A stretch of DNA of 41,029 nucleotides, taken from the UHGV virus genome UHGV-0145872; one strand, written 5' to 3'. Shown in pieces: positions 1-41,029 of this stretch. Each line of letters starts with the position of its first letter. Positions within the stretch are counted from its first letter, which is position 1. The stretch comes from a virus. Both the position numbers and the translations under genes were made by a program. The notes beneath the pieces were generated by a model. It searched no databases, had not been told where the DNA came from, and saw only the letters and a program-made list of their open reading frames with translations.

Positions 1-951
1 ATGGCATCACTGTCGATTAATACGCTACGCCGAATGAGCATTTGTAAAAGTCAGGCCTGGAAAGATACCCAGCGAATACTGAAGCGTAGTGGACTTGTGT
101 ACAGAGGGGAACGGTCAGAATCGTTTGATCCTGAGAAACATTTTAATCGTTATACGGTGCGTTATCTGTACCTGCTTAACATAATTGCGCTTAAGATAAG
201 GTCGGTTAGTAAATTTTCCTGTTGGATCGAGGTGGGACAATGCCATCGTATGACTGGTAAACATTTATCTCTTAATGCCCCGCCTTTTATGCTGATTCCG
301 CGTAGTATCCGGAGAAAAGTGGATGGATTCAGACAGTCAAAAGGTGAAGCAACCCCAAAATCGGCTCAACCGTTCACGGGCAGTTTGTATGAGGTTTTGA
401 GCAAGGAGAGCGATTCAGCTAAGCTGGACGCATGGATTGCTGAACTGCCTCTGAACTTGCAGGAGGAGGGAAAGGAAATCTCAGTCATGGGATTTAGTCC
501 ACGGGCTGTGGCCCGACCTGTTCTTCGGTCAGCATCCCCGACGTTTGAACTGTTTTATCAGGAGTATCAATCCCTAAGATTAAAATCTGTTTTTAAATTT
601 GAACCAAGATTTGAACAACTTTTAACAAGACTGAGCTTTAGAAAACAATCAATTCTCAGAAAACAACAATACAGGGTTAAATCGCAATTACTGGAGAGAC
701 TGGGGAATGTGTTGTTTTTCACGTCGCTTTATAACCAGGGATGTTTAGAGGAGTTTATAAATGCACTTGTGGAAAAGGAGGACATTTATCTGAAAATGTC
801 CCCTGGGGAGGAAAAGGTGAAAGCACACCAGAAAATGGTTAACTACATTGAAGCGTTCTGCAACAAAATGACGGAAAAATACCTGATGCCCGCAGCAAGC
901 AGACACTACAAAAAGAAGAAAATCGCTAGGAGCGAAAGTGGTGAAAGTTAA
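1..951 (+). CDS. hypothetical protein (316 aa) in AT-rich left flank
   Basis: ORF starts with ATG at window position 1 and ends at 949-951; no motif I recognise; visibly AT-rich compared with the prophage body; convergent with and overlapping the next gene by 4 nt. Confidence 0.35.
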   Translation: MASLSINTLRRMSICKSQAWKDTQRILKRSGLVYRGERSESFDPEKHFNRYTVRYLYLLNIIALKIRSVSKFSCWIEVGQCHRMTGKHLSLNAPPFMLIPRSIRRKVDGFRQSKGEATPKSAQPFTGSLYEVLSKESDSAKLDAWIAELPLNLQEEGKEISVMGFSPRAVARPVLRSASPTFELFYQEYQSLRLKSVFKFEPRFEQLLTRLSFRKQSILRKQQYRVKSQLLERLGNVLFFTSLYNQGCLEEFINALVEKEDIYLKMSPGEEKVKAHQKMVNYIEAFCNKMTEKYLMPAASRHYKKKKIARSESGES

Positions 952-1736
952 TCCAGTCTACCGTACAGAATCAGTTGTTCCAGAATAGCCTGCTGTGTTG
1001 TTTTCCGCTCTCTGGTCAGTCTGTCCAGAGCGCTTTTTGCGGATGGCGATATCTTTACGTTGATTTGTACCCGTTTATCTTTTTTTCCATCGATAAACTG
1101 TTTTCTGAATGCATTGTGCATCTTGTCGAAAAATCTTTCTTTTGCAGCGAATCCTAGGTGAAATTCTTTTGGCGTCAGTAAACAGGGTGTGTCTGTGGGG
1201 AATAACATTTTTAGTAAAACTACAATGGCAATATATCTTTCGTTATCATTTACAGGATTAAACCAGGAAAGATATGTGGGTGAGATACGTGCATCAATAT
1301 ATTCCCATGCCCATTTCAGTTGTTCGGTATTCTTTTTAAGCCATTTGGCTTCGTTTCTCTTTTCGAGTCCCAGCCAGTTTTGATGCATTATTGAGATAAT
1401 CCGATCTGCTTCCCCATAAAGGATTAACGCATTAATCCATTTCCCTATAACATTCAGTCGTGTTTCATGACTTGAAGGAATAATTGTCATGGGGTTATCC
1501 TTCATAACGATCACCCCCTTCAAGGCAGAATTGAACTCAGATTCATTATTAAGTTTAAGTTTTTCGGGAACTGTATGAGACATAATTAACCAGAACCAGA
1601 ATGCTGCAATTTCATTTTTTCTGATCCATTCAGGTATGTGATTATCTGCCAGATTATTATCATTCAATAAATGCTCAGTTGTTTTATTTTTCCAGTCATA
1701 TCTATTCACGTTATAACCGCCTTTATATTGTTTCAT
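948..1736 (-). CDS. hypothetical protein with C-terminal ribbon-helix-helix-like segment
   Basis: Six-frame ORF 948..1823; internal ATG at 1736 is preceded by GAGG about 9 nt upstream, so the start is probably there (262 aa). C-terminal residues (RVQINVKISPSAKSALDRLTRERKTTQQAILEQLI) look like an RHH (beta-strand plus two helices) DNA-binding fold. Confidence 0.35.
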   Translation of the reverse strand: MKQYKGGYNVNRYDWKNKTTEHLLNDNNLADNHIPEWIRKNEIAAFWFWLIMSHTVPEKLKLNNESEFNSALKGVIVMKDNPMTIIPSSHETRLNVIGKWINALILYGEADRIISIMHQNWLGLEKRNEAKWLKKNTEQLKWAWEYIDARISPTYLSWFNPVNDNERYIAIVVLLKMLFPTDTPCLLTPKEFHLGFAAKERFFDKMHNAFRKQFIDGKKDKRVQINVKISPSAKSALDRLTRERKTTQQAILEQLILYGRLD

Positions 1737-2404
1737 CTGATTACGCCTCAATCGTTTTCTTTTCTGGTGATTTTCACCATCACATGTCAGTTGTATATGC
1801 AAGGGAATCAATAAAAATATCACCCTGCAAGCACTTCAAAGCTGATTATGGGGATATTCTAGAACTATTCACAAAACTATTCCAGACATATCAAGAACTA
1901 TTTCTTGATCTATTCATAATAAAATAAAACATGCTATCAACTACGGATCATATCCTCCTTAGGTGTGTCGTTGTACTGTTCGACTGTTCTTGTGGTCAGA
2001 TTAACAATCTGAAGAGTAAAAGCGACAGTAATCTGTCTGTTATAGTGGCGATAAAAACACTGACTGCGCATCCTGTATGTGAAATCCTGTCATGTAGAGC
2101 AGTAAGCAATGACAGACATGCATGTTATATGTGAAGGGGCCGGGAGACGACATAATCAGTATGGCTGTCATTCTGGTTGTAAAACGCGATCACTTTCCGG
2201 GGGTAAAAGATGATATGGAGGTTGACAAACGGTTTGCTTCGGATTGTCTTTTCTGGGGCCTGAAGTACGGGGGCAGAAAAATAATTCCAGAGTAAATCTG
2301 CTCTGTTTTTAGGACAGAAAACTCCATGCTGGCTGTAAAAGTGAAAAATTAACACCCAGTATGTATGGAAGTCTGAAGATGTTGAGAATGTCGGTATGAT
2401 ACTA

Positions 2405-2535
2405 TATACACGTATTTTACTAAGTATTTTTACTAAGCATTTCAGTAAGTGTTATACACGTATTTTCTACTAAGTGTTTTACCAGACATACACGTGTTTT
2501 CATAAACAGCCCTATAAGTGTTTTCATTAAGCATT
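2405..2535. repeat. cluster of degenerate direct repeats; candidate transposase end-binding sites / prophage left terminus
   Basis: TACACGT(A/G)TTTT at about 2408, 2455 and 2489; ACTAAG(T/C) at 2420, 2432, 2468; TAAGTGTTTT at 2471 and 2516; all within a non-coding AT-rich stretch. Confidence 0.45.
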
Positions 2536-3398
2536 GCTGTACACATTGCTTTGTCTGAAACACATCCAGTTTAGTAAATCTTTACGTTAGCTAAAATCAG
2601 TTTAAAGCTGCTGTAAAACCTTTTTGTTTAAGCAATCAATCTGCTATTCGATTTTACTGATGTTGCGTTTAACCTTTTCTGAGTTTTTGTGTTTTTAGTC
2701 GTTAACCTGAGACAAGTGTCTTTACGTAAAAACGCAAATCCGACTGAGATAACCTGGTGTGATTTACGGTGTGCTTGCGACGATTTTGTTAAATGGTTCT
2801 ATGGATGATTTTGTGACGATGAGATTGATGAGATGATTAACTGGCCCTGGTGTTTTTTCTCAGTGCAAGGTGATTATCTTTATCATAAGGCTCTTTTCAG
2901 AAAAAGCGTGATGATTGGTTCTGGTGTTTTGATTCAGATGAGATTTACGTTATCGATGGTTAATCGTTTTTATGGTGTGTTGAAAAGTAACGTTTTCAGG
3001 ATAAGAAAATCGATTCTGATATTGGTGAACTTTGTTCTTGTGGCAGAGTTATCTGTAAACAGGTTTTAAGTGCGCTATTCGGCTCTGTGATTGAGTTGTG
3101 TGGTTAAGCTGTAGGTTTTGGTGTTGTTGTTGATTTGCATTGCCAGGAAGCGTTCTGGTTGCGTTTCTGGTGTTTTGTTCGAATGTTCTGTGGATCCTTT
3201 TCCCTTCAGGCTTTTCTCGTCGTCCATGTCGTTTTTAAATCTATTCATGCTGTTGTTGCGTGTTTTGCTGCTGTGTGCAGGATTATCTTTTCGTTCCGGG
3301 ATGGTTTGTTCCGTTTCAATCACTCTTAATCAGAGAGTTGTAGCATTGCTCAATGCCGGATGCCGTAAAGTTTTACCGCGTTGATGAATGATGTGAAG

Positions 3399-3531
<133 letters not shown>

Positions 3532-3560
3532 CAGAACTCGCTCCAGCCTGATTGCAGATA

Positions 3561-3950
3561 TTACTCTTTTTTCTCCGTATCTACATCGGGTTCATCAGCA
3601 AATAGCTTGCCCTGCATCCGATCCAGTTCTTCTTTTCTTACCCGCTTAACCACGCTGTAGACCCACTGAAGCGAAACACCAAATTTGCGGGCCAGTTCAT
3701 GGTGGTTACGTCCGTTAAACTCCCTGAAGATTTCCCGGTCGCGCTGACTGACCTTCCATACCATGCCCATCGGGAAATAAACGTTTTGCCCGCCCCAGAC
3801 CTGCATCATGCGGTTCGCGACGGCCTGACCAATCTGGTCGGCAATTGCGGGCTCAATATCAATAATCTCGCGAACGGTCTCAGAGGTATGCTGTGCCAGT
3901 TCCACCAGGAGTTCCGGCCCTTTACTTCGAAACTGATTCAGGTCGCTCAT
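3561..3950 (-). CDS. mor: Mor/C-family transcriptional activator (129 aa)
   Basis: C-terminal region (GGQNVYFPMG...FREFNGRNHHELARKFGVSLQWVYSVVKRVRK) matches the conserved core of Mu Mor/C activators as I recall them; same length as Mu Mor; last gene of the early arm. Confidence 0.8.
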   Translation of the reverse strand: MSDLNQFRSKGPELLVELAQHTSETVREIIDIEPAIADQIGQAVANRMMQVWGGQNVYFPMGMVWKVSQRDREIFREFNGRNHHELARKFGVSLQWVYSVVKRVRKEELDRMQGKLFADEPDVDTEKKE

Positions 3951-11827: not shown

Positions 11828-11913
11828 TGTTGTCTCCTTTGTTGATGCAATGATGTTTGTTTTATATGTGATAGATTATGAGAACTATTATTCTCATTGT
11901 CAATGAGGTTTAT
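11828..11913. promoter_or_regulatory. divergent immunity promoter/operator region
   Basis: On the minus strand TTGACA (plus coordinates 11897-11902), a 17 nt spacer, then CATAAT (11871-11876) form a near-consensus promoter reading toward the early operon; a 15 bp palindrome CTCATTGtCAATGAG (11889-11903) overlaps its -35; a weaker plus-strand TTGATG/TATATG pair could drive the repressor. Confidence 0.5.
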
Positions 11914-12339
11914 GTGAATTTTGATTCTCTTTGCGCGTCGCGGTTCAAAGCTGAGCGTTCGCGGTTATCACTCAAGCAGGCTGAAGTAGCAGCCCTTTGT
12001 GGCGTTTCAAGAGAAATGTGGGGGAAATATGAACGAGGGGTTGCTGTTCCCGGAGGTGAGTTACTTGCAGCCTTTGCAAGAATTGGGGCCAATGTACAGT
12101 TCATTCTTACCGGGGAGTCATCAGGTATAACTTTATCACGTGATGAAATGGAGTTACTGCAGCACTACCGGCAGGCACCATTACAGGTCAAAGGTTCAGT
12201 TTTGTCGGCCTTGACTACTGGCTCCTCCAGAGAACGGGCGGAACAGGTTATTCATGGAGATGTTCTGGGGAATGTTATCAAAGGTAACGTAACCATAGGA
12301 ACAGGTGGAATAATGAACAAAAATACCAAGAGAAGATGA
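11878..12339 (+). CDS. XRE-family HTH repressor (prophage c/CI analogue)
   Basis: HTH segment LSLKQAEVAALCGVSREMWGKYERG; divergent from the early operon; alternative GTG start at 11914 has a GAGGT RBS; stop overlaps start of the next gene (ATGA). Confidence 0.65.
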   Translation: MRTIILIVNEVYVNFDSLCASRFKAERSRLSLKQAEVAALCGVSREMWGKYERGVAVPGGELLAAFARIGANVQFILTGESSGITLSRDEMELLQHYRQAPLQVKGSVLSALTTGSSRERAEQVIHGDVLGNVIKGNVTIGTGGIMNKNTKRR

Positions 12340-13322
12340 GTAAAGAGAAGCAAACAGTTAACGGGGATGTGGGTAACGTTGTCAGCGGTGATGTTACCAT
12401 TCATAACTATTCTGCTGACATACTTCCTTCGGCCCAGCAACCAATTTCGTTGCTGCAAAAACGCGATTTACACAGATTGATGGATGAATTGGTTGATCTG
12501 GGGGAAAGTAAGCGCGAGCTATGGATGACGATCCACACGAAACTTAATACCAAAACAGTTAATGAAATGACTGCGGCTGATTATCATGGTGCGGTTGAGA
12601 TCCTTCAGAGATATGCACAACAGATCCAGAATATGAAGGACTGTAATCTTCTGGTCAGCAAAATAATGGCGCTTACTGACCCTGGGTATCGTCTTGACCG
12701 TGACAGATACTGTCTGAAGCATTTCGGTACAACCCATCTTAAAGGCCTAGACAAAGAGCAGTTGCAGGCTGTGTTTGGTTATTTTGATGATCTGCTGAAT
12801 ATTCGTGATGAGAGTAAAACTCTATCACCTCCATCGGAAAGCGGTGCAAAATCAGTCGCAACTGTACCAACCAGAAGCCGGAAGCCTCATGTAGTAGTGT
12901 TGGGGGGAGTGTTAGTTCTTGTAGCAATATTTTTCGTGGGAATGATTGTGTTCGCTGGTAAATGGGGAAATGCCAAAGCAGTAGCTTCTACTGAAACCAG
13001 CGTTTTTAACATTAAAACCAACAATAAAATAATAGAAGATTCCATCCCCGCACTGCGCAGCATGTTTCCAGGGTTAAATAAGTACTCAGATGATTTCCAT
13101 TCGGTTTCAAGCTACAAGCAAAAAACGGGCTGGCATACCCTTAAATTTACTGTATCAGCAAAGGCATCCGTCCCCGAAAATTATAGTGTTAAGGGCAAGG
13201 TTTGTTACATTAACATAAGCCCTGATGGTAGTTATGCTCGGGTTTTGACTGCTCCATGTCGTTCACTGCTACTTGATCAGCAAAGCACTCCTGACAGTAA
13301 ATACCGTTTTATTCTTAAATAG
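12336..13322 (+). CDS. bitopic membrane protein co-transcribed with repressor (328 aa)
   Basis: Single TM helix (HVVVLGGVLVLVAIFFVGMIVFAG) separating an about 185 aa N-domain from an about 120 aa C-domain; start overlaps repressor stop; no family recognised. Confidence 0.5.
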   Translation: MSKEKQTVNGDVGNVVSGDVTIHNYSADILPSAQQPISLLQKRDLHRLMDELVDLGESKRELWMTIHTKLNTKTVNEMTAADYHGAVEILQRYAQQIQNMKDCNLLVSKIMALTDPGYRLDRDRYCLKHFGTTHLKGLDKEQLQAVFGYFDDLLNIRDESKTLSPPSESGAKSVATVPTRSRKPHVVVLGGVLVLVAIFFVGMIVFAGKWGNAKAVASTETSVFNIKTNNKIIEDSIPALRSMFPGLNKYSDDFHSVSSYKQKTGWHTLKFTVSAKASVPENYSVKGKVCYINISPDGSYARVLTAPCRSLLLDQQSTPDSKYRFILK

Positions 13323-13412
13323 AAAATAACAGCTGAATTACCATGGGATCAGAAAAAAGACAAAGGCGGCATCATGCTGCGTTCTGAAATTTTAATGTAA
13401 AAGGTGATGAAC

Positions 13413-13994
13413 ATGGCAGGGATTCAGGTTATCGCAGGAAGTTTTCCTAAAGGGTGGGCAAGCATGGGGTTCGGTACCATCGTGTTTGCCAAAAAACCAA
13501 AACAAGGCTTTCCTGAAAATATTGTATTAAATCTGAAAGAAGAGCTTTTATCGATTGAACTTGCGGATAGTGAAGAGGAAAGCCGTATAGGTAAGGCGGC
13601 AGGCGCAGGTTTGCTTGGTGGATTAATCTTTGGTGGTGCAGGGTTGGTCATTGGAGGTTTGCTTGGTGCGGCGGACAAGACGAAAAAAACTATCACTTTT
13701 AAGGCAATGTTTACGGGAAATAGGTTACTTCTGGCTAAAACAGATTCAAAAACTTTTGTAAAACTTCAGTCAATTGCTGCTGATAATGCCCATAACGCAT
13801 CTGTAATCAACATGAAGCAAACTAATAGGGGCGATGTTTCTTCTCGTAAACAACTAACAGAAAATCCACAGCAGCAAGACTTACCTGCGCCCGCTACAAC
13901 AGTAAAAATGACTGCCAAAGATAAGTTAGAATCGGCTCTTGGGCTGGGAATCATCGTTATAGCTGTTTGGGCAATAATACACTTCTTTTTTTAG
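13413..13994 (+). CDS. glycine-zipper membrane protein (about 193 aa)
   Basis: GKAAGAGLLGGLIFGGAGLVIGGLLGAA glycine-zipper segment plus C-terminal TM LGLGIIVIAVWAIIHFFF; AGGTGA RBS 5 nt before ATG 13413 (the six-frame ORF begins at GTG 13404). Confidence 0.5.
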   Translation: MAGIQVIAGSFPKGWASMGFGTIVFAKKPKQGFPENIVLNLKEELLSIELADSEEESRIGKAAGAGLLGGLIFGGAGLVIGGLLGAADKTKKTITFKAMFTGNRLLLAKTDSKTFVKLQSIAADNAHNASVINMKQTNRGDVSSRKQLTENPQQQDLPAPATTVKMTAKDKLESALGLGIIVIAVWAIIHFFF

Positions 13995-28517: not shown

Positions 28518-31500
28518 ATGTCGGGACAGTTTTCAGTCGGCGTTGTTATCGGCGGGATGATTGGCAGCACATTCCGTTCTGCAATGAGCGGTACCCGCCG
28601 TGCGCTTGATTCCCTGAGCGATACCTCACGCCGCCTGCAGGAACGTCAGAACGCTTTAACCCGTGCAACAGAACGTTATGGTCAACTGGGTTCTTCCCGG
28701 ATGCAGCATCTCAACAGCGAGCTGCTGCGGGTAAGCCGCACCATGGAGCAAATTGAGCGCCAGCAGCGCCGTCTGTCAGCGGCATCCGCTACCAGTGATG
28801 CGCTGAAAGCTAACCGCATGGCGCTGTATGGTCAGGGGATTGAAGCGTATGGCATGGCACAGACTGTTTATCATACGGTTTCCCCTGCCGTTCAGCAGTC
28901 CATGTCTTTTCAGGACAAAATGATTGATATGTCGATCACCGCAAAATATGACAATAAAACGCGGGATGCACTTGCCGGACAGATAAAAGGCTGGGCGCTT
29001 AAATACAATCAGTATCAGGATGAGCTGCAGGAGGCGGTGGGTTCACTCATCAGCGACAATATTGATAATGTGTCAGATATCGGTTTTCTGATGCCGGATA
29101 TTGCCCGCGCGGCAACGGCAACACGCACGTCTGCTCAGGACTGGGCAAAAGTGGCCGCAGTCTGGCAAAACTCCCTGAAAGGTGCGGCCAGAGATTTTGG
29201 TGCCGTTCAGAATATTATGGCTTATGCCGGTGACCAGGGGTCATTTGAAATCCCGGATCAGGTCAAGTGGATGCAGTCCCTGGCCCCAATGATGGCGGGT
29301 CTTGCCAGTGGAAAAGAGGCTGTTGCTGAAATCGGGGCCAGTCTCCAGATAGCAAAAATCGGTGCAGGTTCCACCGACGAAGCAGCCAATAATTTTAAAA
29401 ACTTTCTTACCAAAATTTTTGCCCGCGATACTCAGAAACAGTTTGCTGATCTGGGTATTGATTTGCAGGGATCTATTGCGAGTTATAAAGCTGCGGGGAT
29501 CTCTCCGATTGAAGGGATGTTGAGTGTTATAGAACGTTACCTCAATGCCAAAAGCCCCGAAGCGCTGGCCGGCTTCAAATCAGCCATGAAAATAAAGAAT
29601 GATACGGCAAGAGATGAGGCACTTCAGGCTCTGGCGAAAAACTTTGGTCTGGGCGATATGTTCGCGGATATGCAGGTCATGGCATTTATCCGCCCGATGC
29701 TGGCCAACATGGACAGATATCGAGAGATCCGTGCCGGTGCTCTCAGGGCTGCGGATAACGATTTGCTTGCCAGTGCTTATGATCAGCGGCTGAAATCTCC
29801 CCTTGAAGCCACTAAAACACTTATGGTCAGCAGTCGCGATCTGGCAATTACGCTGGGCGATCAATTAGCTCCATCTTTTATTTCTCTGACTCAGGAACTG
29901 CTCCCACTCATTCAGGGGACAAAACACTGGGTAGCGACTCACCCGCAATTTGTCAGTGGGGCTTTTAAGCTCATCAGTGCGCTCCTTGCGATTAAGATAG
30001 CGACTATTGGTCTCAAACTGGGGCTGAATCTCCTTATTTCCCCCTTTGTGAACGTCTGGAAAACTACTGTTTTACTCCGGACCAACTGGCATCGACTGAC
30101 TACCGCACTCGGAGAAGGTGGCAAATTACGCTGGCTTGTCACTGGATTCAGCCGACTGACCAGCGGAGGACTGAAACTCAGCAAAGTTCTGGCGGGCAGC
30201 CTCGTTCGCGGTTTTATGAGCGCTGCACGTGCCGTTCTCTGGATTGGGCGAGCGCTGATGATGAATCCCATCGGTCTCGTTATCACCGCTGTCGCGACAG
30301 CAGCTTACCTTATCTACCGCAACTGGGGGGCTGTCAGTGGTTGGTTTAAACAGCGCTGGGCTGACATTCAGGAAGCCTTTAACGGCGGCATTGTGGGAAT
30401 TGGTAAGTTGCTGATTAACTGGTCGCCGGCAGGCCTGCTCTATAAAGCCTTTGCGGCTGCGCTGAAATATTTCGGCGTTGCTCTGCCGGCAAAGTTCACC
30501 GACTTCGGTGGCCATCTTATCGACGGTCTGATTAACGGTATCAAAAACAAATGGGGGTCGCTCAAATCCAGTGTAACCGGAATGGGTGACAGCATCAGTA
30601 GCTGGTTTAAACAGCGCTGGGCTGACATTCAGGAAGCCTTTAACGGCGGCATTGTGGGAATTGGTAAGTTGCTGATTAACTGGTCGCCGGCAGGCCTGCT
30701 CTATAAAGCCTTTGCGGCTGCGCTGAAATATTTCGGCGTTGCTCTGCCGGCAAAGTTCACCGACTTCGGTGGCCATCTTATCGACGGTCTGATTAACGGT
30801 ATCAAAAACAAATGGGGGTCGCTCAAATCCAGTGTAACCGGAATGGGTGACAGCATCAGTAGCTGGTTTAAACAGTGCTGGGCTGACATTCAGGAAGCCT
30901 TTAACGGCGGTATCGCGGGAACTGGTAAGCTGCTGATTAACTGGTCGCCGGCAGGTCTGCTCTATAAAGCCTTTGCAGCTGCGCTGAAATATCTTGGTGT
31001 TGATCTGCCGGCAAAGTTCACCGACTTCGGTGGCCATCTTGTCGACGGTCTGATTAACGGTATCAAAAACAAATGGGAGTCGCTCAAATCCAGTGTAACC
31101 GGAATGGGTGACAGCATCAGTGGCTGGTTCAGCGAAAAGCTGGGCATTCATTCGCCGAGCCGCGTGTTTATGGGCTTTGGTGACAATATCGCGCAGGGGG
31201 CCGCCATTGGCCTGCAGCGGACCACTCCGCTTGCAGCTCTGGCCGGGCAGCGAATGGCCAGTGAACTGCTCCCCAGAATGCCCGTGAGCATTCAGGGGCC
31301 AGAAATACGGGATAACACTTCAGGTGTTCGCTTCAGTATGCCGTTGCCCGATATCAATGGGTTTATGTCGTCTGCTAAAAATGCGATCGGAGCCGTAATC
31401 AATAGTTTGTCTTCCATGCCCGTTATTCCGCTCTCCACCCGGGCATCGATTTTACCAGGGCAACGTCTGGCAAATGAGATGACACCGGATGTTCCCCGTA

Positions 31501-31730
31501 TCCCCTCGCCTGAAATCCTGGCTGCCGGATATTCAGGCCGTGGTGCAGCTGCAACCGGCGGTGGAACGTCTGGTGGTATCCAGGTCAGCTTTAATCCTCA
31601 GTTTTTCCTCAATGGCAGGGAAACCACAGCGCCTGCAGGACTGACTGGTGCCCTGAATATGAGTCTGCATGAGCTGGAAAAAATGCTGGAGCGTCTGCTG
31701 GCTCAGAAACAACGTAAGGAGTACCGCTGA
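28518..31730 (+). CDS. tail tape measure protein (1070 aa)
   Basis: Large alpha-helical protein downstream of sheath, tube and chaperone; GGAGG RBS; contains an internal tandem repeat. Confidence 0.85.
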   Translation: MSGQFSVGVVIGGMIGSTFRSAMSGTRRALDSLSDTSRRLQERQNALTRATERYGQLGSSRMQHLNSELLRVSRTMEQIERQQRRLSAASATSDALKANRMALYGQGIEAYGMAQTVYHTVSPAVQQSMSFQDKMIDMSITAKYDNKTRDALAGQIKGWALKYNQYQDELQEAVGSLISDNIDNVSDIGFLMPDIARAATATRTSAQDWAKVAAVWQNSLKGAARDFGAVQNIMAYAGDQGSFEIPDQVKWMQSLAPMMAGLASGKEAVAEIGASLQIAKIGAGSTDEAANNFKNFLTKIFARDTQKQFADLGIDLQGSIASYKAAGISPIEGMLSVIERYLNAKSPEALAGFKSAMKIKNDTARDEALQALAKNFGLGDMFADMQVMAFIRPMLANMDRYREIRAGALRAADNDLLASAYDQRLKSPLEATKTLMVSSRDLAITLGDQLAPSFISLTQELLPLIQGTKHWVATHPQFVSGAFKLISALLAIKIATIGLKLGLNLLISPFVNVWKTTVLLRTNWHRLTTALGEGGKLRWLVTGFSRLTSGGLKLSKVLAGSLVRGFMSAARAVLWIGRALMMNPIGLVITAVATAAYLIYRNWGAVSGWFKQRWADIQEAFNGGIVGIGKLLINWSPAGLLYKAFAAALKYFGVALPAKFTDFGGHLIDGLINGIKNKWGSLKSSVTGMGDSISSWFKQRWADIQEAFNGGIVGIGKLLINWSPAGLLYKAFAAALKYFGVALPAKFTDFGGHLIDGLINGIKNKWGSLKSSVTGMGDSISSWFKQCWADIQEAFNGGIAGTGKLLINWSPAGLLYKAFAAALKYLGVDLPAKFTDFGGHLVDGLINGIKNKWESLKSSVTGMGDSISGWFSEKLGIHSPSRVFMGFGDNIAQGAAIGLQRTTPLAALAGQRMASELLPRMPVSIQGPEIRDNTSGVRFSMPLPDINGFMSSAKNAIGAVINSLSSMPVIPLSTRASILPGQRLANEMTPDVPRIPSPEILAAGYSGRGAAATGGGTSGGIQVSFNPQFFLNGRETTAPAGLTGALNMSLHELEKMLERLLAQKQRKEYR
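30342..31124 (+). repeat. 3 x 261 bp in-frame tandem repeat inside tape measure gene
   Basis: TGGTTTAAACAGCGCTGGGCTGACATTCAGG... unit starts at 30342, 30603 and 30864; copies 1 and 2 appear identical and copy 3 differs at a few positions; encodes three 87 aa repeats. Confidence 0.85.
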
Positions 31731-39791: not shown

Positions 39792-40261
39792 ATGCTGATT
39801 GGCTACATACGTGTGTCAACAAATGACCAAAACACAGATTTGCAACGCAATGCATTAATGTGCGCAGGATGTGAACAGATTTTTGAGGACAAAATGAGCG
39901 GAACCAAGTCGGAACGACCAGGCCTGAAACGCGCTTTAAAGTGCCTTAAAAGAGGGGATACATTGGTGGTCTGGAAGCTGGATCGGTTGGGTAGAAGAAT
40001 GAAACACCTCATTGCTCTCACAGAAGAGCTACGCGCAAAAGGTGTCAATTTTCGCAGTCTGACGGATTCAATCGATACCAGCACTCCGATGGGAAGGTTC
40101 TTTTTTCATATGATGGGTGCACTGGCAGAAATGGAGCGTGAACTGATAGTTGAGCGCACGCTGGCAGGACTGGCTGCTGCGCGAGCACAAGGAAGAGTTG
40201 GAGGACGTCGCCCGAAACTGACGAAGGAGCAGCATGAGCAGATCGCAAGATTGCTCCAGAA
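39792..40261 (+). pseudogene. Gin/Cin/Pin-family serine DNA invertase, 3' end truncated by IS26 insertion
   Basis: N-terminus MLIGYIRVSTNDQNTDLQRNALMCAGCEQIFEDK... is near-identical to Gin/Pin as recalled, with the catalytic Ser in RVSTNDQ; after about 157 codons (…RRPKLTKEQHEQIARLLQK) the frame runs into the IS26 inverted repeat and ends after 16 IS-derived residues; the C-terminal HTH domain is missing. Confidence 0.8.
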
Positions 40262-41029
40262 GGCACTGTTGCAAATAGTCGGTGGTGATAAACTTATCAT
40301 CCCCTTTTGCTGATGGAGCTGCACATGAACCCATTCAAAGGCCGGCATTTTCAGCGTGACATCATTCTGTGGGCCGTACGCTGGTACTGCAAATACGGCA
40401 TCAGTTACCGTGAGCTGCAGGAGATGCTGGCTGAACGCGGAGTGAATGTCGATCACTCCACGATTTACCGCTGGGTTCAGCGTTATGCGCCTGAAATGGA
40501 AAAACGGCTGCGCTGGTACTGGCGTAACCCTTCCGATCTTTGCCCGTGGCACATGGATGAAACCTACGTGAAGGTCAATGGCCGCTGGGCGTATCTGTAC
40601 CGGGCCGTCGACAGCCGGGGCCGCACTGTCGATTTTTATCTCTCCTCCCGTCGTAACAGCAAAGCTGCATACCGGTTTCTGGGTAAAATCCTCAACAACG
40701 TGAAGAAGTGGCAGATCCCGCGATTCATCAACACGGATAAAGCGCCCGCCTATGGTCGCGCGCTTGCTCTGCTCAAACGCGAAGGCCGGTGCCCGTCTGA
40801 CGTTGAACACCGACAGATTAAGTACCGGAACAACGTGATTGAATGCGATCATGGCAAACTGAAACGGATAATCGGCGCCACGCTGGGATTTAAATCCATG
40901 AAGACGGCTTACGCCACCATCAAAGGTATTGAGGTGATGCGTGCACTACGCAAAGGCCAGGCCTCAGCATTTTATTATGGTGATCCCCTGGGCGAAATGC
41001 GCCTGGTAAGCAGAGTTTTTGAAATGTAA
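40262..41029 (+). mobile_element. IS26 (IS6 family), partial: left inverted repeat and complete transposase gene; right end lies beyond the window
   Basis: 14 bp terminal inverted repeat GGCACTGTTGCAAA at 40262-40275, followed by the characteristic IS26 leader and the Tnp26 ORF; the 820 bp element would end at about 41081. Confidence 0.9.
40325..41029 (+). CDS. tnpA: IS26 transposase Tnp26 (234 aa)
   Basis: Protein MNPFKGRHFQRDIILWAVRWYCKYGISYRELQEMLAERGVNVDHSTIYRWVQRYAPEMEKRLRWYWR...GEMRLVSRVFEM matches IS26 transposase as I recall it; stop codon at the window end. Confidence 0.9.
   Translation: MNPFKGRHFQRDIILWAVRWYCKYGISYRELQEMLAERGVNVDHSTIYRWVQRYAPEMEKRLRWYWRNPSDLCPWHMDETYVKVNGRWAYLYRAVDSRGRTVDFYLSSRRNSKAAYRFLGKILNNVKKWQIPRFINTDKAPAYGRALALLKREGRCPSDVEHRQIKYRNNVIECDHGKLKRIIGATLGFKSMKTAYATIKGIEVMRALRKGQASAFYYGDPLGEMRLVSRVFEM

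Follow-up and report, generated by a model that had tools for sequence, protein, structure and literature searches.

The left end of the UHGV virus genome UHGV-0145872, whose whole 41,029-nucleotide stretch is referred to here as the window, is not viral: we are nearly certain that positions 1-3399 are a piece of a CP4-57-type genomic island (P4-like, with an AlpA/YfjJ...YfjP/RadC/CbtA backbone). This flank carries two convergent genes, geneA and geneB, and the latter seems to encode a DNA-binding protein in which two helical bundles resembling the N-terminal part of MatP (MatP-N) are followed by a ribbon-helix-helix (RHH) domain. The explanation that we consider best, and which, taken as a whole, we find evenly balanced between right and wrong, has several parts: the island lies in the chromosome of an extraintestinal-type E. 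coli; a BcepMu/Mu-like transposable prophage inserted into it at 3399/3400, in the spacer between geneB and a YfjJ ('inovirus Gp2 family') gene; both geneA and geneB belong to the backbone of the island family and are cargo of neither island nor phage; and the geneB product is a DNA-binding regulator gating the excision/replication module of the island.

Island flank and prophage junction

Window 1-3399 matches E. coli chromosomal DNA at 99.9% identity. At least 80% of window 1-3500 is covered in 513 complete E. coli genomes, and a match of any kind occurs in 2,153 of 5,426, most of these matches being paralogous island copies of 80-90% identity. In strain ATCC 11775 the segment lies within a CP4-57-type genomic island, beside the kps capsule genes and ireA. 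The order of genes is as follows: CbtA/CbeA, DUF987, JAB/RadC, antirestriction protein, DUF932, DUF905, a helix-turn-helix (HTH) regulator, GTPase, geneA, geneB, approximately 1.7 kb of DNA poor in open reading frames (ORFs), an 'inovirus Gp2 family' gene and ireA. This is the order of the backbone of CP4-57 in strain K-12 (alpA, yfjI, yfjJ ... yfjP, yfjQ, yfjR ... antirestriction, RadC, ypjJ). When ATCC 11775 and the loci L002-L004, L009-L013, L015 and L017-L018 were compared with K-12 CP4-57, the same arrangement was found, i.e. AlpA and/or a YfjJ-type Gp2 protein on one side and the YfjP/YeeP GTPase, DUF932, antirestriction protein, RadC and CbeA/CbtA on the other.

An earlier, sequence-only reading of this DNA had described positions 1-1823 as AT-rich, and their guanine-plus-cytosine (GC) content is indeed 40.3%, compared with 54.4% in the prophage body (3400-40261). 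The value is 43.0% for geneA (44% at third codon positions, GC3) and 37.3% for geneB (GC3 37%). The description of two convergent genes with overlapping stops was likewise accurate: the segment contains two long ORFs, 1-951 (+, 316 aa) and 948-1823 (-), whose stop codons, TAA at 949-951 (+) and TAA at 950-948 (-), overlap in the palindrome TTAA. Two adjustments have to be made to this correct observation. The start of geneB is the ATG at 1736 (262 aa) instead of the mechanically assigned GTG at 1823, since RefSeq annotates WP_000816188.1 in this way and the homologues open with MKQYEDGY. Moreover, the AT-rich tract passes 1823 and ends only at the island/prophage junction, positions 1737-3399 having a GC content of 38.3%. 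The translations of both genes are 100% identical to those of the ATCC 11775 locus, and annotation there, retention of the pair in divergent homologues and purifying selection (see below) mark geneA and geneB as real genes. The same reading had taken the segment to be horizontally acquired. As its genes proved to be neither conserved core genes nor typical in GC content, this suggestion stands; the segment is non-core, is found in only part of the species and lies inside a genomic island. Terminator-like hairpins number 9 in window 1-3600 (2.7 +/- 1.7 in shuffled sequence). Two of those on the minus strand are located past the geneB stop, inside the 3' end of geneA (935-923 and 906-886), and the first on the plus strand after geneA falls within geneB (1338-1351), all three being consensus matches only.

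The blastn identity to ATCC 11775 ends exactly at 3399, whereas the island sequence of that strain, the one prophage-free genome examined, runs on uninterrupted, with no prophage at the corresponding site. From 3400 onwards the window contains a prophage with Mor and GemA as its first genes and a transposase with an rve domain. It is 95% identical to Escherichia phage PhiKM across most of the early region, and its leftward early and rightward late operons resemble the layout of BcepMu-type phages. The junction of the window was found in none of the complete E. coli genomes. Relatives of the prophage occupy unrelated sites (a symporter gene, an autotransporter gene, hycH and others), with matches beginning at window 3390-3397; the varied insertion sites together with these match starts indicate the behaviour of a transposable, Mu-like phage. 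In uninterrupted islands the junction falls 29 bp upstream of the start of the Gp2-family gene (in L001, at 18399 and 18428, respectively), so the insertion has severed this gene from its upstream region and from geneB. The same island segment is broken by the IS3-family element ISEc52 in some E. coli strains (e.g. NZ_CP012635.1, 827878-832529), which makes the AT-rich spacer a repeated target of mobile-element insertion.

The segment adjoins the prophage directly, as the sequence-only reading had noted, and differs from it in GC content. Both features would suit cargo (a moron) of the adjacent prophage, and that reading had allowed for DNA carried by the phage. We regard this explanation as refuted. 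The phage end is at 3400, so that the segment lies outside the phage ends, and it does not travel with the phage: in ATCC 11775 it is contiguous with an island that continues past 3399 in the absence of a prophage, the 513 genomes mentioned above carry it at high coverage, no complete genome shares the junction, and the relatives of the prophage have other flanks. A tblastn search with geneB gave 0 matches in 50,697 phage records. Its matches in plasmid records number 4 among 72,556, and geneA is present in 2 plasmid records. The contiguity in ATCC 11775, the mobility of the prophage and the absence from phage records identify the flank as island DNA that received a transposed phage. The appropriate annotation is consequently that of island DNA which a transposable phage has interrupted, and neither phage cargo nor a defence locus.

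The geneB protein and its relation to MatP

Close homologues of geneB form 9 clusters, and all of those with a named source come from E. coli. An exhaustive profile search yielded 85 representatives of 250-370 aa with 18-32% identity, mostly aligned across nearly the entire profile, to which a profile word-index search added solely an Amphritea homologue.

The family profile matched MatP, the macrodomain Ter protein that organises the chromosome, in the PDB set (hmmsearch) over approximately 120 residues, with E-values of 2e-4 (4D8J) and 2e-3 (7NYW). When the family was compared with E. coli MatP using hhalign, geneB residues 140-259 were aligned with MatP 11-126 at a probability of 91.3% (E 9e-7), and a two-sequence MatP alignment lifted the probability to 92.4%. 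The score of the real MatP was 44.5, whereas 30 shuffled MatP sequences scored at most 18.8 and the reversed one 15.0. Taken singly, MatP residues 1-87 (bundle) and 88-150 (RHH part) also match geneB, in colinear order, at E-values of approximately 4-5e-4 (4e-4 for the bundle alone). Furthermore, geneB contains an internal duplication: residues 41-124 and 136-213 align with each other at an hhalign probability of 94.9% (E 4.8e-8; 20 column-shuffle controls scored at most 15.2). The two repeats share a skeleton consisting of N-E-x4-W-x-W, then P-x-(S/N)-x2-E-R-x3-I, then K-x2-(F/L)-x3-K-x2-W.

The C-terminal part of the window protein, taken alone, matches RHH models below threshold: Pfam RHH_1 with E 0.085 (13.3 bits, cut-off 20.5), RepB-RCR_reg with E 0.099 and the NCBIfam RepA-regulatory model with E 0.027. 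At the family level the picture is clearer, as RepB-RCR_reg was matched by 9 and RHH_1 by 4 of 46 relatives, and some of these matches exceed the Pfam cut-offs (P0079, RHH_1, 23.2 bits, cut-off 20.5; P0087, RepB-RCR_reg, 21.9 bits, cut-off 21). The family profile also matches CopG and ORF56 in the PDB, albeit weakly. Profile comparison of the family thus recovers the strand/helix/helix motif of approximately 45 residues that characterizes the RHH superfamily, and the RHH-like tail first seen in the letters of the window can be assigned to it at this level.

The AlphaFold2 (AF2) model of geneB, built from a shallow 5-sequence alignment, has a mean predicted local distance difference test (pLDDT) score of 65 and is all-helical. 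In this monomer two helices follow the VQINVKIS segment (residues 223-230), which is not assigned as a strand. Foldseek aligned CopG on the RHH of geneB with a target-normalised template modelling (TM) score of 0.82, found no significant match to the model in the PDB, and gave weak structural matches to MatP. Searching PDB sequences with the single proteins geneA and geneB returned nothing useful. The part preceding the RHH had been described as an otherwise unrecognised domain of about 220 aa. It does lack a Pfam match, but it appears to be an internal duplication of a MatP-N-like helical unit and not a structureless novelty.

From these comparisons geneB is classed as MatP-like in architecture and in this respect a remote relative of MatP, but neither a member of the MatP family nor an orthologue. 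As in MatP (PF06303 + PF17414), a helical bundle appears to be followed by an RHH, geneB residues ~137-259 being colinear with MatP 8-126, and the W-x-W-x-Y motif and the RHH pattern R-L-x-x-L-x-x-R-x-x-K-T-x-x-x-x-I-x-Q-L-I are present. Unlike MatP, geneB carries the bundle twice, the additional copy lying upstream, and lacks the coiled-coil tail, since the protein ends 3-5 residues after RHH helix 2 and the alignment stops at residue 126 of the 150 of MatP. No site resembling matS (GTGACRNYGTCAC, up to 2 mismatches) was found in window 1-3399. Moreover, MatP is the product of a single-copy core gene, which adjoins ompA in K-12, whereas geneB resides on islands, has several alleles and is found in a fraction of E. 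coli only. MatP is described as restricted to enterobacteria and close relatives (PMC7188993). MatP-like proteins on mobile elements are not described in the searchable literature, and the duplicated MatP-like architecture, its fixed position opposite AlpA/YfjJ and the candidate operator (both described below) appear to be new observations.

In one protein, P0009 (147 aa), the first ~90 residues of a geneB allele are fused to a segment of DUF4942 (PF13708), whose gene closes the same island backbone; this suggests a deletion/rearrangement within an island, or an assembly artefact.

Conserved context, alleles and candidate operator

At 9 independent loci, with identities down to 24%, the geneB homologue is always divergent from an AlpA and/or a YagK_YfjJ_C ('Gp2') gene. 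The intervening spacer measures approximately 370-590 bp, and approximately 1.6 kb in E. coli alleles of the type seen in the window, in which AlpA has been lost. A YagK_YfjJ_C/REP_ORF2-G2P gene adjoins the geneB homologues in 8 of the 9 contexts; in the remaining one (L017/L018) the gene beside AlpA is devoid of a Gp2 domain. On the other side of geneB there is usually a YfjP-type GTPase operon (GTPase, WYL/HTH, DUF932, RadC, DUF987, CbeA). In a tenth locus, L009, geneA and the GTPase gene are present, and the sequence ends too near geneB for the AlpA/Gp2 side to be seen. As this place between AlpA/YfjJ and the GTPase operon is kept at 24-30% identity, geneA and geneB cannot be regarded as variable cargo.

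Homologues of geneA form 68 clusters, none of them with a Pfam domain. All the named ones are from Escherichia/Enterobacteriaceae bar one, a 100%-identical partial geneA in a Negativicoccus metagenome-assembled genome (MAG) record, which is probably contamination. The geneA protein itself gave nothing significant in Pfam, NCBIfam, PADLOC, PHROGs or the PDB (one PHROGs match, of unknown function, had E 0.13), its family profile matched nothing in the PDB, and no relation to geneB or MatP and no internal repeats were detected. The AF2 model (pLDDT 47) was unusable and was left out of the fold search. The scan of genome contigs for geneA relied on a single narrow peptide pattern and gave 2 loci, so that its taxonomic spread is poorly sampled. 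The convergent neighbours of distant geneB homologues proved to be geneA homologues (~275-303 aa; hhalign probability 99.3-99.6%, E 1e-20 to 1e-25). The convergent pair is present in the E. coli alleles, in L009, L010 and L011-13, and in a Serratia MAG (L015). The TTAA overlap of 4 bp recurs in L002, L004, L005 and L009, and is replaced by a gap of 10 bp in L011 and of 178 bp in L010. A geneA homologue is missing beside geneB in the Amphritea island (L007), in L017/18, where geneB directly precedes the GTPase gene, in L019/20 and in L021. Thus, geneA is a frequent yet dispensable companion of geneB, divergent from the GTPase operon.

The ratio of nonsynonymous (dN) to synonymous (dS) substitution rates is 0.1-0.6 wherever divergence was measurable, bar one segment without substitutions and one with saturated dS (for geneA, ~0.35-0.55 in the segments with measurable divergence), which indicates purifying selection on both genes. 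Compared with L002, the window is a mosaic: 1-1384 is 91% identical and 1902-3399 is 87% identical, whereas 1385-1901, corresponding to the first ~117 codons of geneB and its promoter, cannot be aligned. In the most divergent alleles (L002 and L004) residues 1-205 of geneB are 31-37% identical and residues 206-262 are 91-95% identical; identity over the RHH-coding region is likewise 91-95% in the two E. coli alleles that diverge most among those compared, and 79% in a third. The saturated dS in the divergent part of geneB points to old alleles swapped by recombination. Positive selection on repeat 1 was considered and rejected, as dS is saturated there too and dN/dS is below 1.

Tandem copies of the motif AGGAATAGTT are located approximately 125-180 bp before the geneB ATG, immediately upstream of a 67-codon ORF that is read in the divergent direction. 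Three exact copies and one near copy lie within 1863-1915 at a spacing of ~11 bp, and exact copies across the 41 kb number 6, compared with 1.5 expected. The same motif with an exact 11-bp spacing occurs in L002 (two copies), L004 (two) and L014 (four), and thus in all the other E. coli alleles compared, whose RHH is near-identical to that of the window, and in L002 and L004 it persists though the surrounding DNA cannot be aligned. RHH dimers commonly bind tandem repeats one helical turn apart. The AGGAATAGTT repeats are a phylogenetic footprint and a candidate operator of the geneB protein, which does not amount to proof.

The rest of the spacer was searched for other elements (Table 1). An Rfam scan of window 1-3600 detected no family, and tblastn detected no AlpA remnant in 1737-3399. 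The product of the 67-codon ORF is 78-81% identical in L002 and L014, and 59% identical in its C-terminal part in L004. This ORF was called as a gene in L002, is left unannotated by RefSeq in ATCC 11775, and has no Pfam match. Further into the ORF-poor spacer, at 2405-2541, there is a degenerate tandem array with a period of ~25 bp and 3-5 copies of ACACGTATTTTCTACTAAGTGTTTT-like units, which could be iterons or binding sites of an island protein.

Table 1. Features of the island flank and its junction with the prophage (window coordinates).
Feature	Position	Strand	Basis
geneA, 316-aa basic protein (pI 9.85), no known family; WP_000157734.1	1..951	+	ORF; annotated in ATCC 11775
TTAA common to both convergent stop codons	948..951		Sequence
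geneB, 262-aa putative DNA-binding protein with two MatP-N-like repeats and C-terminal RHH; WP_000816188.1	948..1736	-	ORF, RefSeq identity, profiles
RHH-coding region (geneB residues ~220-262)	951..1079	-	RHH profiles, Foldseek, allele comparison
MatP-N-like repeat 2 (geneB residues 136-213), with W-x-W-x-Y motif as in MatP	1098..1331	-	hmmsearch/hhalign to MatP 11-87
MatP-N-like repeat 1 (geneB residues 41-124), most variable part among E. coli island variants	1365..1616	-	Internal duplication
AT-rich (38% GC), ORF-poor spacer from geneB to the YfjJ/'inovirus Gp2 family' gene, cut at its right end by the prophage	1737..3399		ORFs, GC, blastn
Tandem (A/G)GAATAG(T/A)T direct repeats, candidate geneB operator	1858..1927	-	Motif copies, allele comparison
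Conserved 67-aa ORF divergent from geneB, coding status uncertain	1931..2134	+	ORF, homology
Boundary between island and left end of transposable (Mor/GemA/rve) prophage	3399..3400		blastn to ATCC 11775; match starts of prophage relatives

Several observations were made in the remainder of the window. Positions 40261-41029 are an insertion sequence (IS), which opens with GGCACTGTTGCAAA, a motif that we take to be the IS26 terminal repeat, and closes at the transposase stop codon at 41029; it matches thousands of plasmid and chromosomal places. As this IS abuts the prophage beside an invertase ('recombinase family') gene, the right end of the prophage and the target duplication are not visible in the window. 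A second AT-rich patch (11878-13994, 41-45% GC) separates the leftward early operon of the prophage from its rightward late genes. It contains an HTH_31 repressor-like gene (153 aa; weak PADLOC matches to RmrA/control proteins), followed by ORFs of 328 aa and 196 aa without a Pfam or PADLOC family, and is possibly genuine phage cargo. The 13-mer GTGACAGCATCAG occurs at 30586, 30847 and 31108 within a 1,070-aa ORF (28518-31730), and the exact 261-bp spacing indicates an internal tandem repeat of 87 codons in this presumed tail gene. The matS-like pattern (up to 2 mismatches) is over-represented in the prophage, with 17 occurrences compared with 5.8 expected.

Proposed regulatory role and its alternatives

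We suggest that geneB encodes a sequence-specific DNA-binding protein composed of two MatP-N-like bundles and an RHH, through which it would dimerise. Binding to the tandem AGGAATAGTT repeats of this divergent control region might allow it to autoregulate its own expression and to repress or gate the leftward AlpA/YfjJ excision-replication module. Such a protein would act as an island maintenance regulator, in a role comparable to that of satellite and island master repressors. The alleles of repeat 1, whose divergence is ancient, could give specificity for a partner or a signal, and geneA might modulate the switch, either as a protein partner or by convergent transcription across the shared TTAA.

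Certain observations speak against this proposal. The Pfam models MatP and MatP_C matched no member of the family, either among the 7 scanned at E<=1 or among all 46 scanned at E<=0.01. The distant loci, which have a different RHH, showed no AGGAATAGTT motif, so that the operator assignment draws on four related alleles. AlpA is missing in the subtype represented by the window, so the target here would be the small ORF and the Gp2 gene, the latter now being separated by 37 kb of prophage. Finally, geneA cannot be obligatory for geneB function, as it is absent from 4 of the 9 contexts. If geneB does regulate the Gp2-family gene, this circuit has been broken in the present strain by the prophage. 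A bolder version of the proposal may be put forward as a tentative idea that we ourselves find doubtful: geneB, with its duplicated MatP-N bundle and RHH, would found an undescribed family of mobile-element proteins and be a master switch of CP4-57-type islands that holds AlpA/YfjJ off by binding the tandem repeats spaced at 11 bp. Its anciently diverged first repeat would recognise an allele-specific inducer (e.g. a helper-phage protein), with geneA as its convergently encoded antagonist and MatP as a domesticated relative of the family, or the reverse.

A different role for geneB, which we consider unlikely, is that of an origin or nick-site accessory factor for the YfjJ/'inovirus Gp2' protein, understood as a rolling-circle-type initiator that the repeats would position for replication or mobilisation. 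RHH accessory proteins serve relaxosomes and rolling-circle plasmids in this way. The initiator-like gene beside geneB in 8 of the 9 contexts is in keeping with such a role, as are the two sets of repeats (1858-1927 and 2405-2541), although a Gp2 domain is missing from the gene next to AlpA in L017/L018. The best RHH similarities of geneB are to plasmid replication-control proteins (RepB-RCR_reg, RepA regulatory), which also seems to favour it. However, RepB-RCR_reg/CopB-type proteins are transcriptional repressors of rep genes, so this similarity fits a regulator equally well. The two roles are not mutually exclusive. Another conceivable role, which we find barely credible, is that of a mobile mimic of MatP: geneB would then act on the organisation of chromosomal or island DNA (e.g. 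by bridging or positioning island DNA or by interfering with MatP/MukBEF) and not on gene expression. Its homology covers both MatP DNA-binding domains, and the duplicated bundle could offer a second interaction surface. However, the coiled coil, which in MatP mediates tetramerisation and bridging, is absent, the flank has no matS-like site, and geneB is constantly accompanied by a divergent promoter region, a sign of local regulation.

Antitoxins often contain RHH domains, and on this account geneA and geneB might constitute a toxin-antitoxin or anti-phage defence module in which the RHH protein would be the antitoxin or sensor; the sequence-only reading had likewise proposed accessory or defence cargo. 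The strong divergence of geneB alleles in repeat 1 could be seen in this light, and in K-12 CP4-57 the yfjJ-yfjP interval holds the defence genes abpAB and rnlAB, so that the position can host defence cargo. We nevertheless judge such a module very improbable. Neither protein matched any family of PADLOC-DB 2.0 at E<=1, and searches of Pfam, NCBIfam, PADLOC and PHROGs revealed no toxin domain in geneA or in the N-terminal part of geneB. Instead of forming an operon, the two genes converge, and at 316 and 262 aa they far exceed typical type II pairs; the RHH occupies the C-terminus and forms part of a MatP-like DNA-binding unit. Moreover, geneB occurs without geneA in four contexts, and its divergence reflects ancient alleles and recombination (dS being saturated together with dN) without detectable positive selection. 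Above all, a fixed place in the island backbone down to 24-30% identity is unlike cargo, and the proposal of accessory or defence cargo is not supported.

The regulatory role suggested above can be set beside several known systems. The CopG, CopB(RepA2) and RepB-RCR_reg repressors are the best matches of the C-terminal 45 residues of geneB, which, like them, adjoins a replication-initiator-like gene. They differ in being proteins of 45-90 aa made of an RHH alone, whereas geneB has ~215 extra N-terminal residues and a C-terminal RHH. The master repressors of satellites and islands include Stl of the Staphylococcus aureus pathogenicity islands (SaPIs) and the regulators divergent from alpA in Gram-negative phage-inducible chromosomal islands (PICIs). 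geneB resembles them in being divergent from an alpA-led excision/replication operon, and in combining a conserved DNA-binding part with a strongly diverged part that could recognise different inducers. Those repressors use a helix-turn-helix and have no sequence relation to geneB, hence the likeness lies in the proposed role only. K-12 CP4-57 shares AlpA, the YfjJ-type Gp2, the YfjP/YeeP GTPase, DUF932, the antirestriction protein, RadC and CbeA/CbtA with the islands studied here, but carries abpAB, yfjM and rnlAB in the interval concerned and no homologue of geneA or geneB. The Shigella SRL pathogenicity island has the same backbone, and its orf42-45, reported as having 'no similarity', fill the slot from AlpA to the GTPase (PMC6980539); they were matched to geneA/geneB by position alone. 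Neither RefSeq accession (WP_000157734.1, WP_000816188.1) is cited in the searchable literature. Both proteins are already present in databases as 'hypothetical protein', and the island context in itself is ordinary.

In E. coli and Shigella, CP4-57-type islands belong to the most frequent mobile elements, and the genes found on them serve virulence, iron uptake and defence or are capsule-adjacent. A conserved, putatively DNA-binding protein at the divergent control region, together with its candidate operator, might provide a testable handle on the control of their excision and replication beyond AlpA. The similarity of geneB to MatP, a protein confined to enterobacteria and their kin, would be of evolutionary interest as well.

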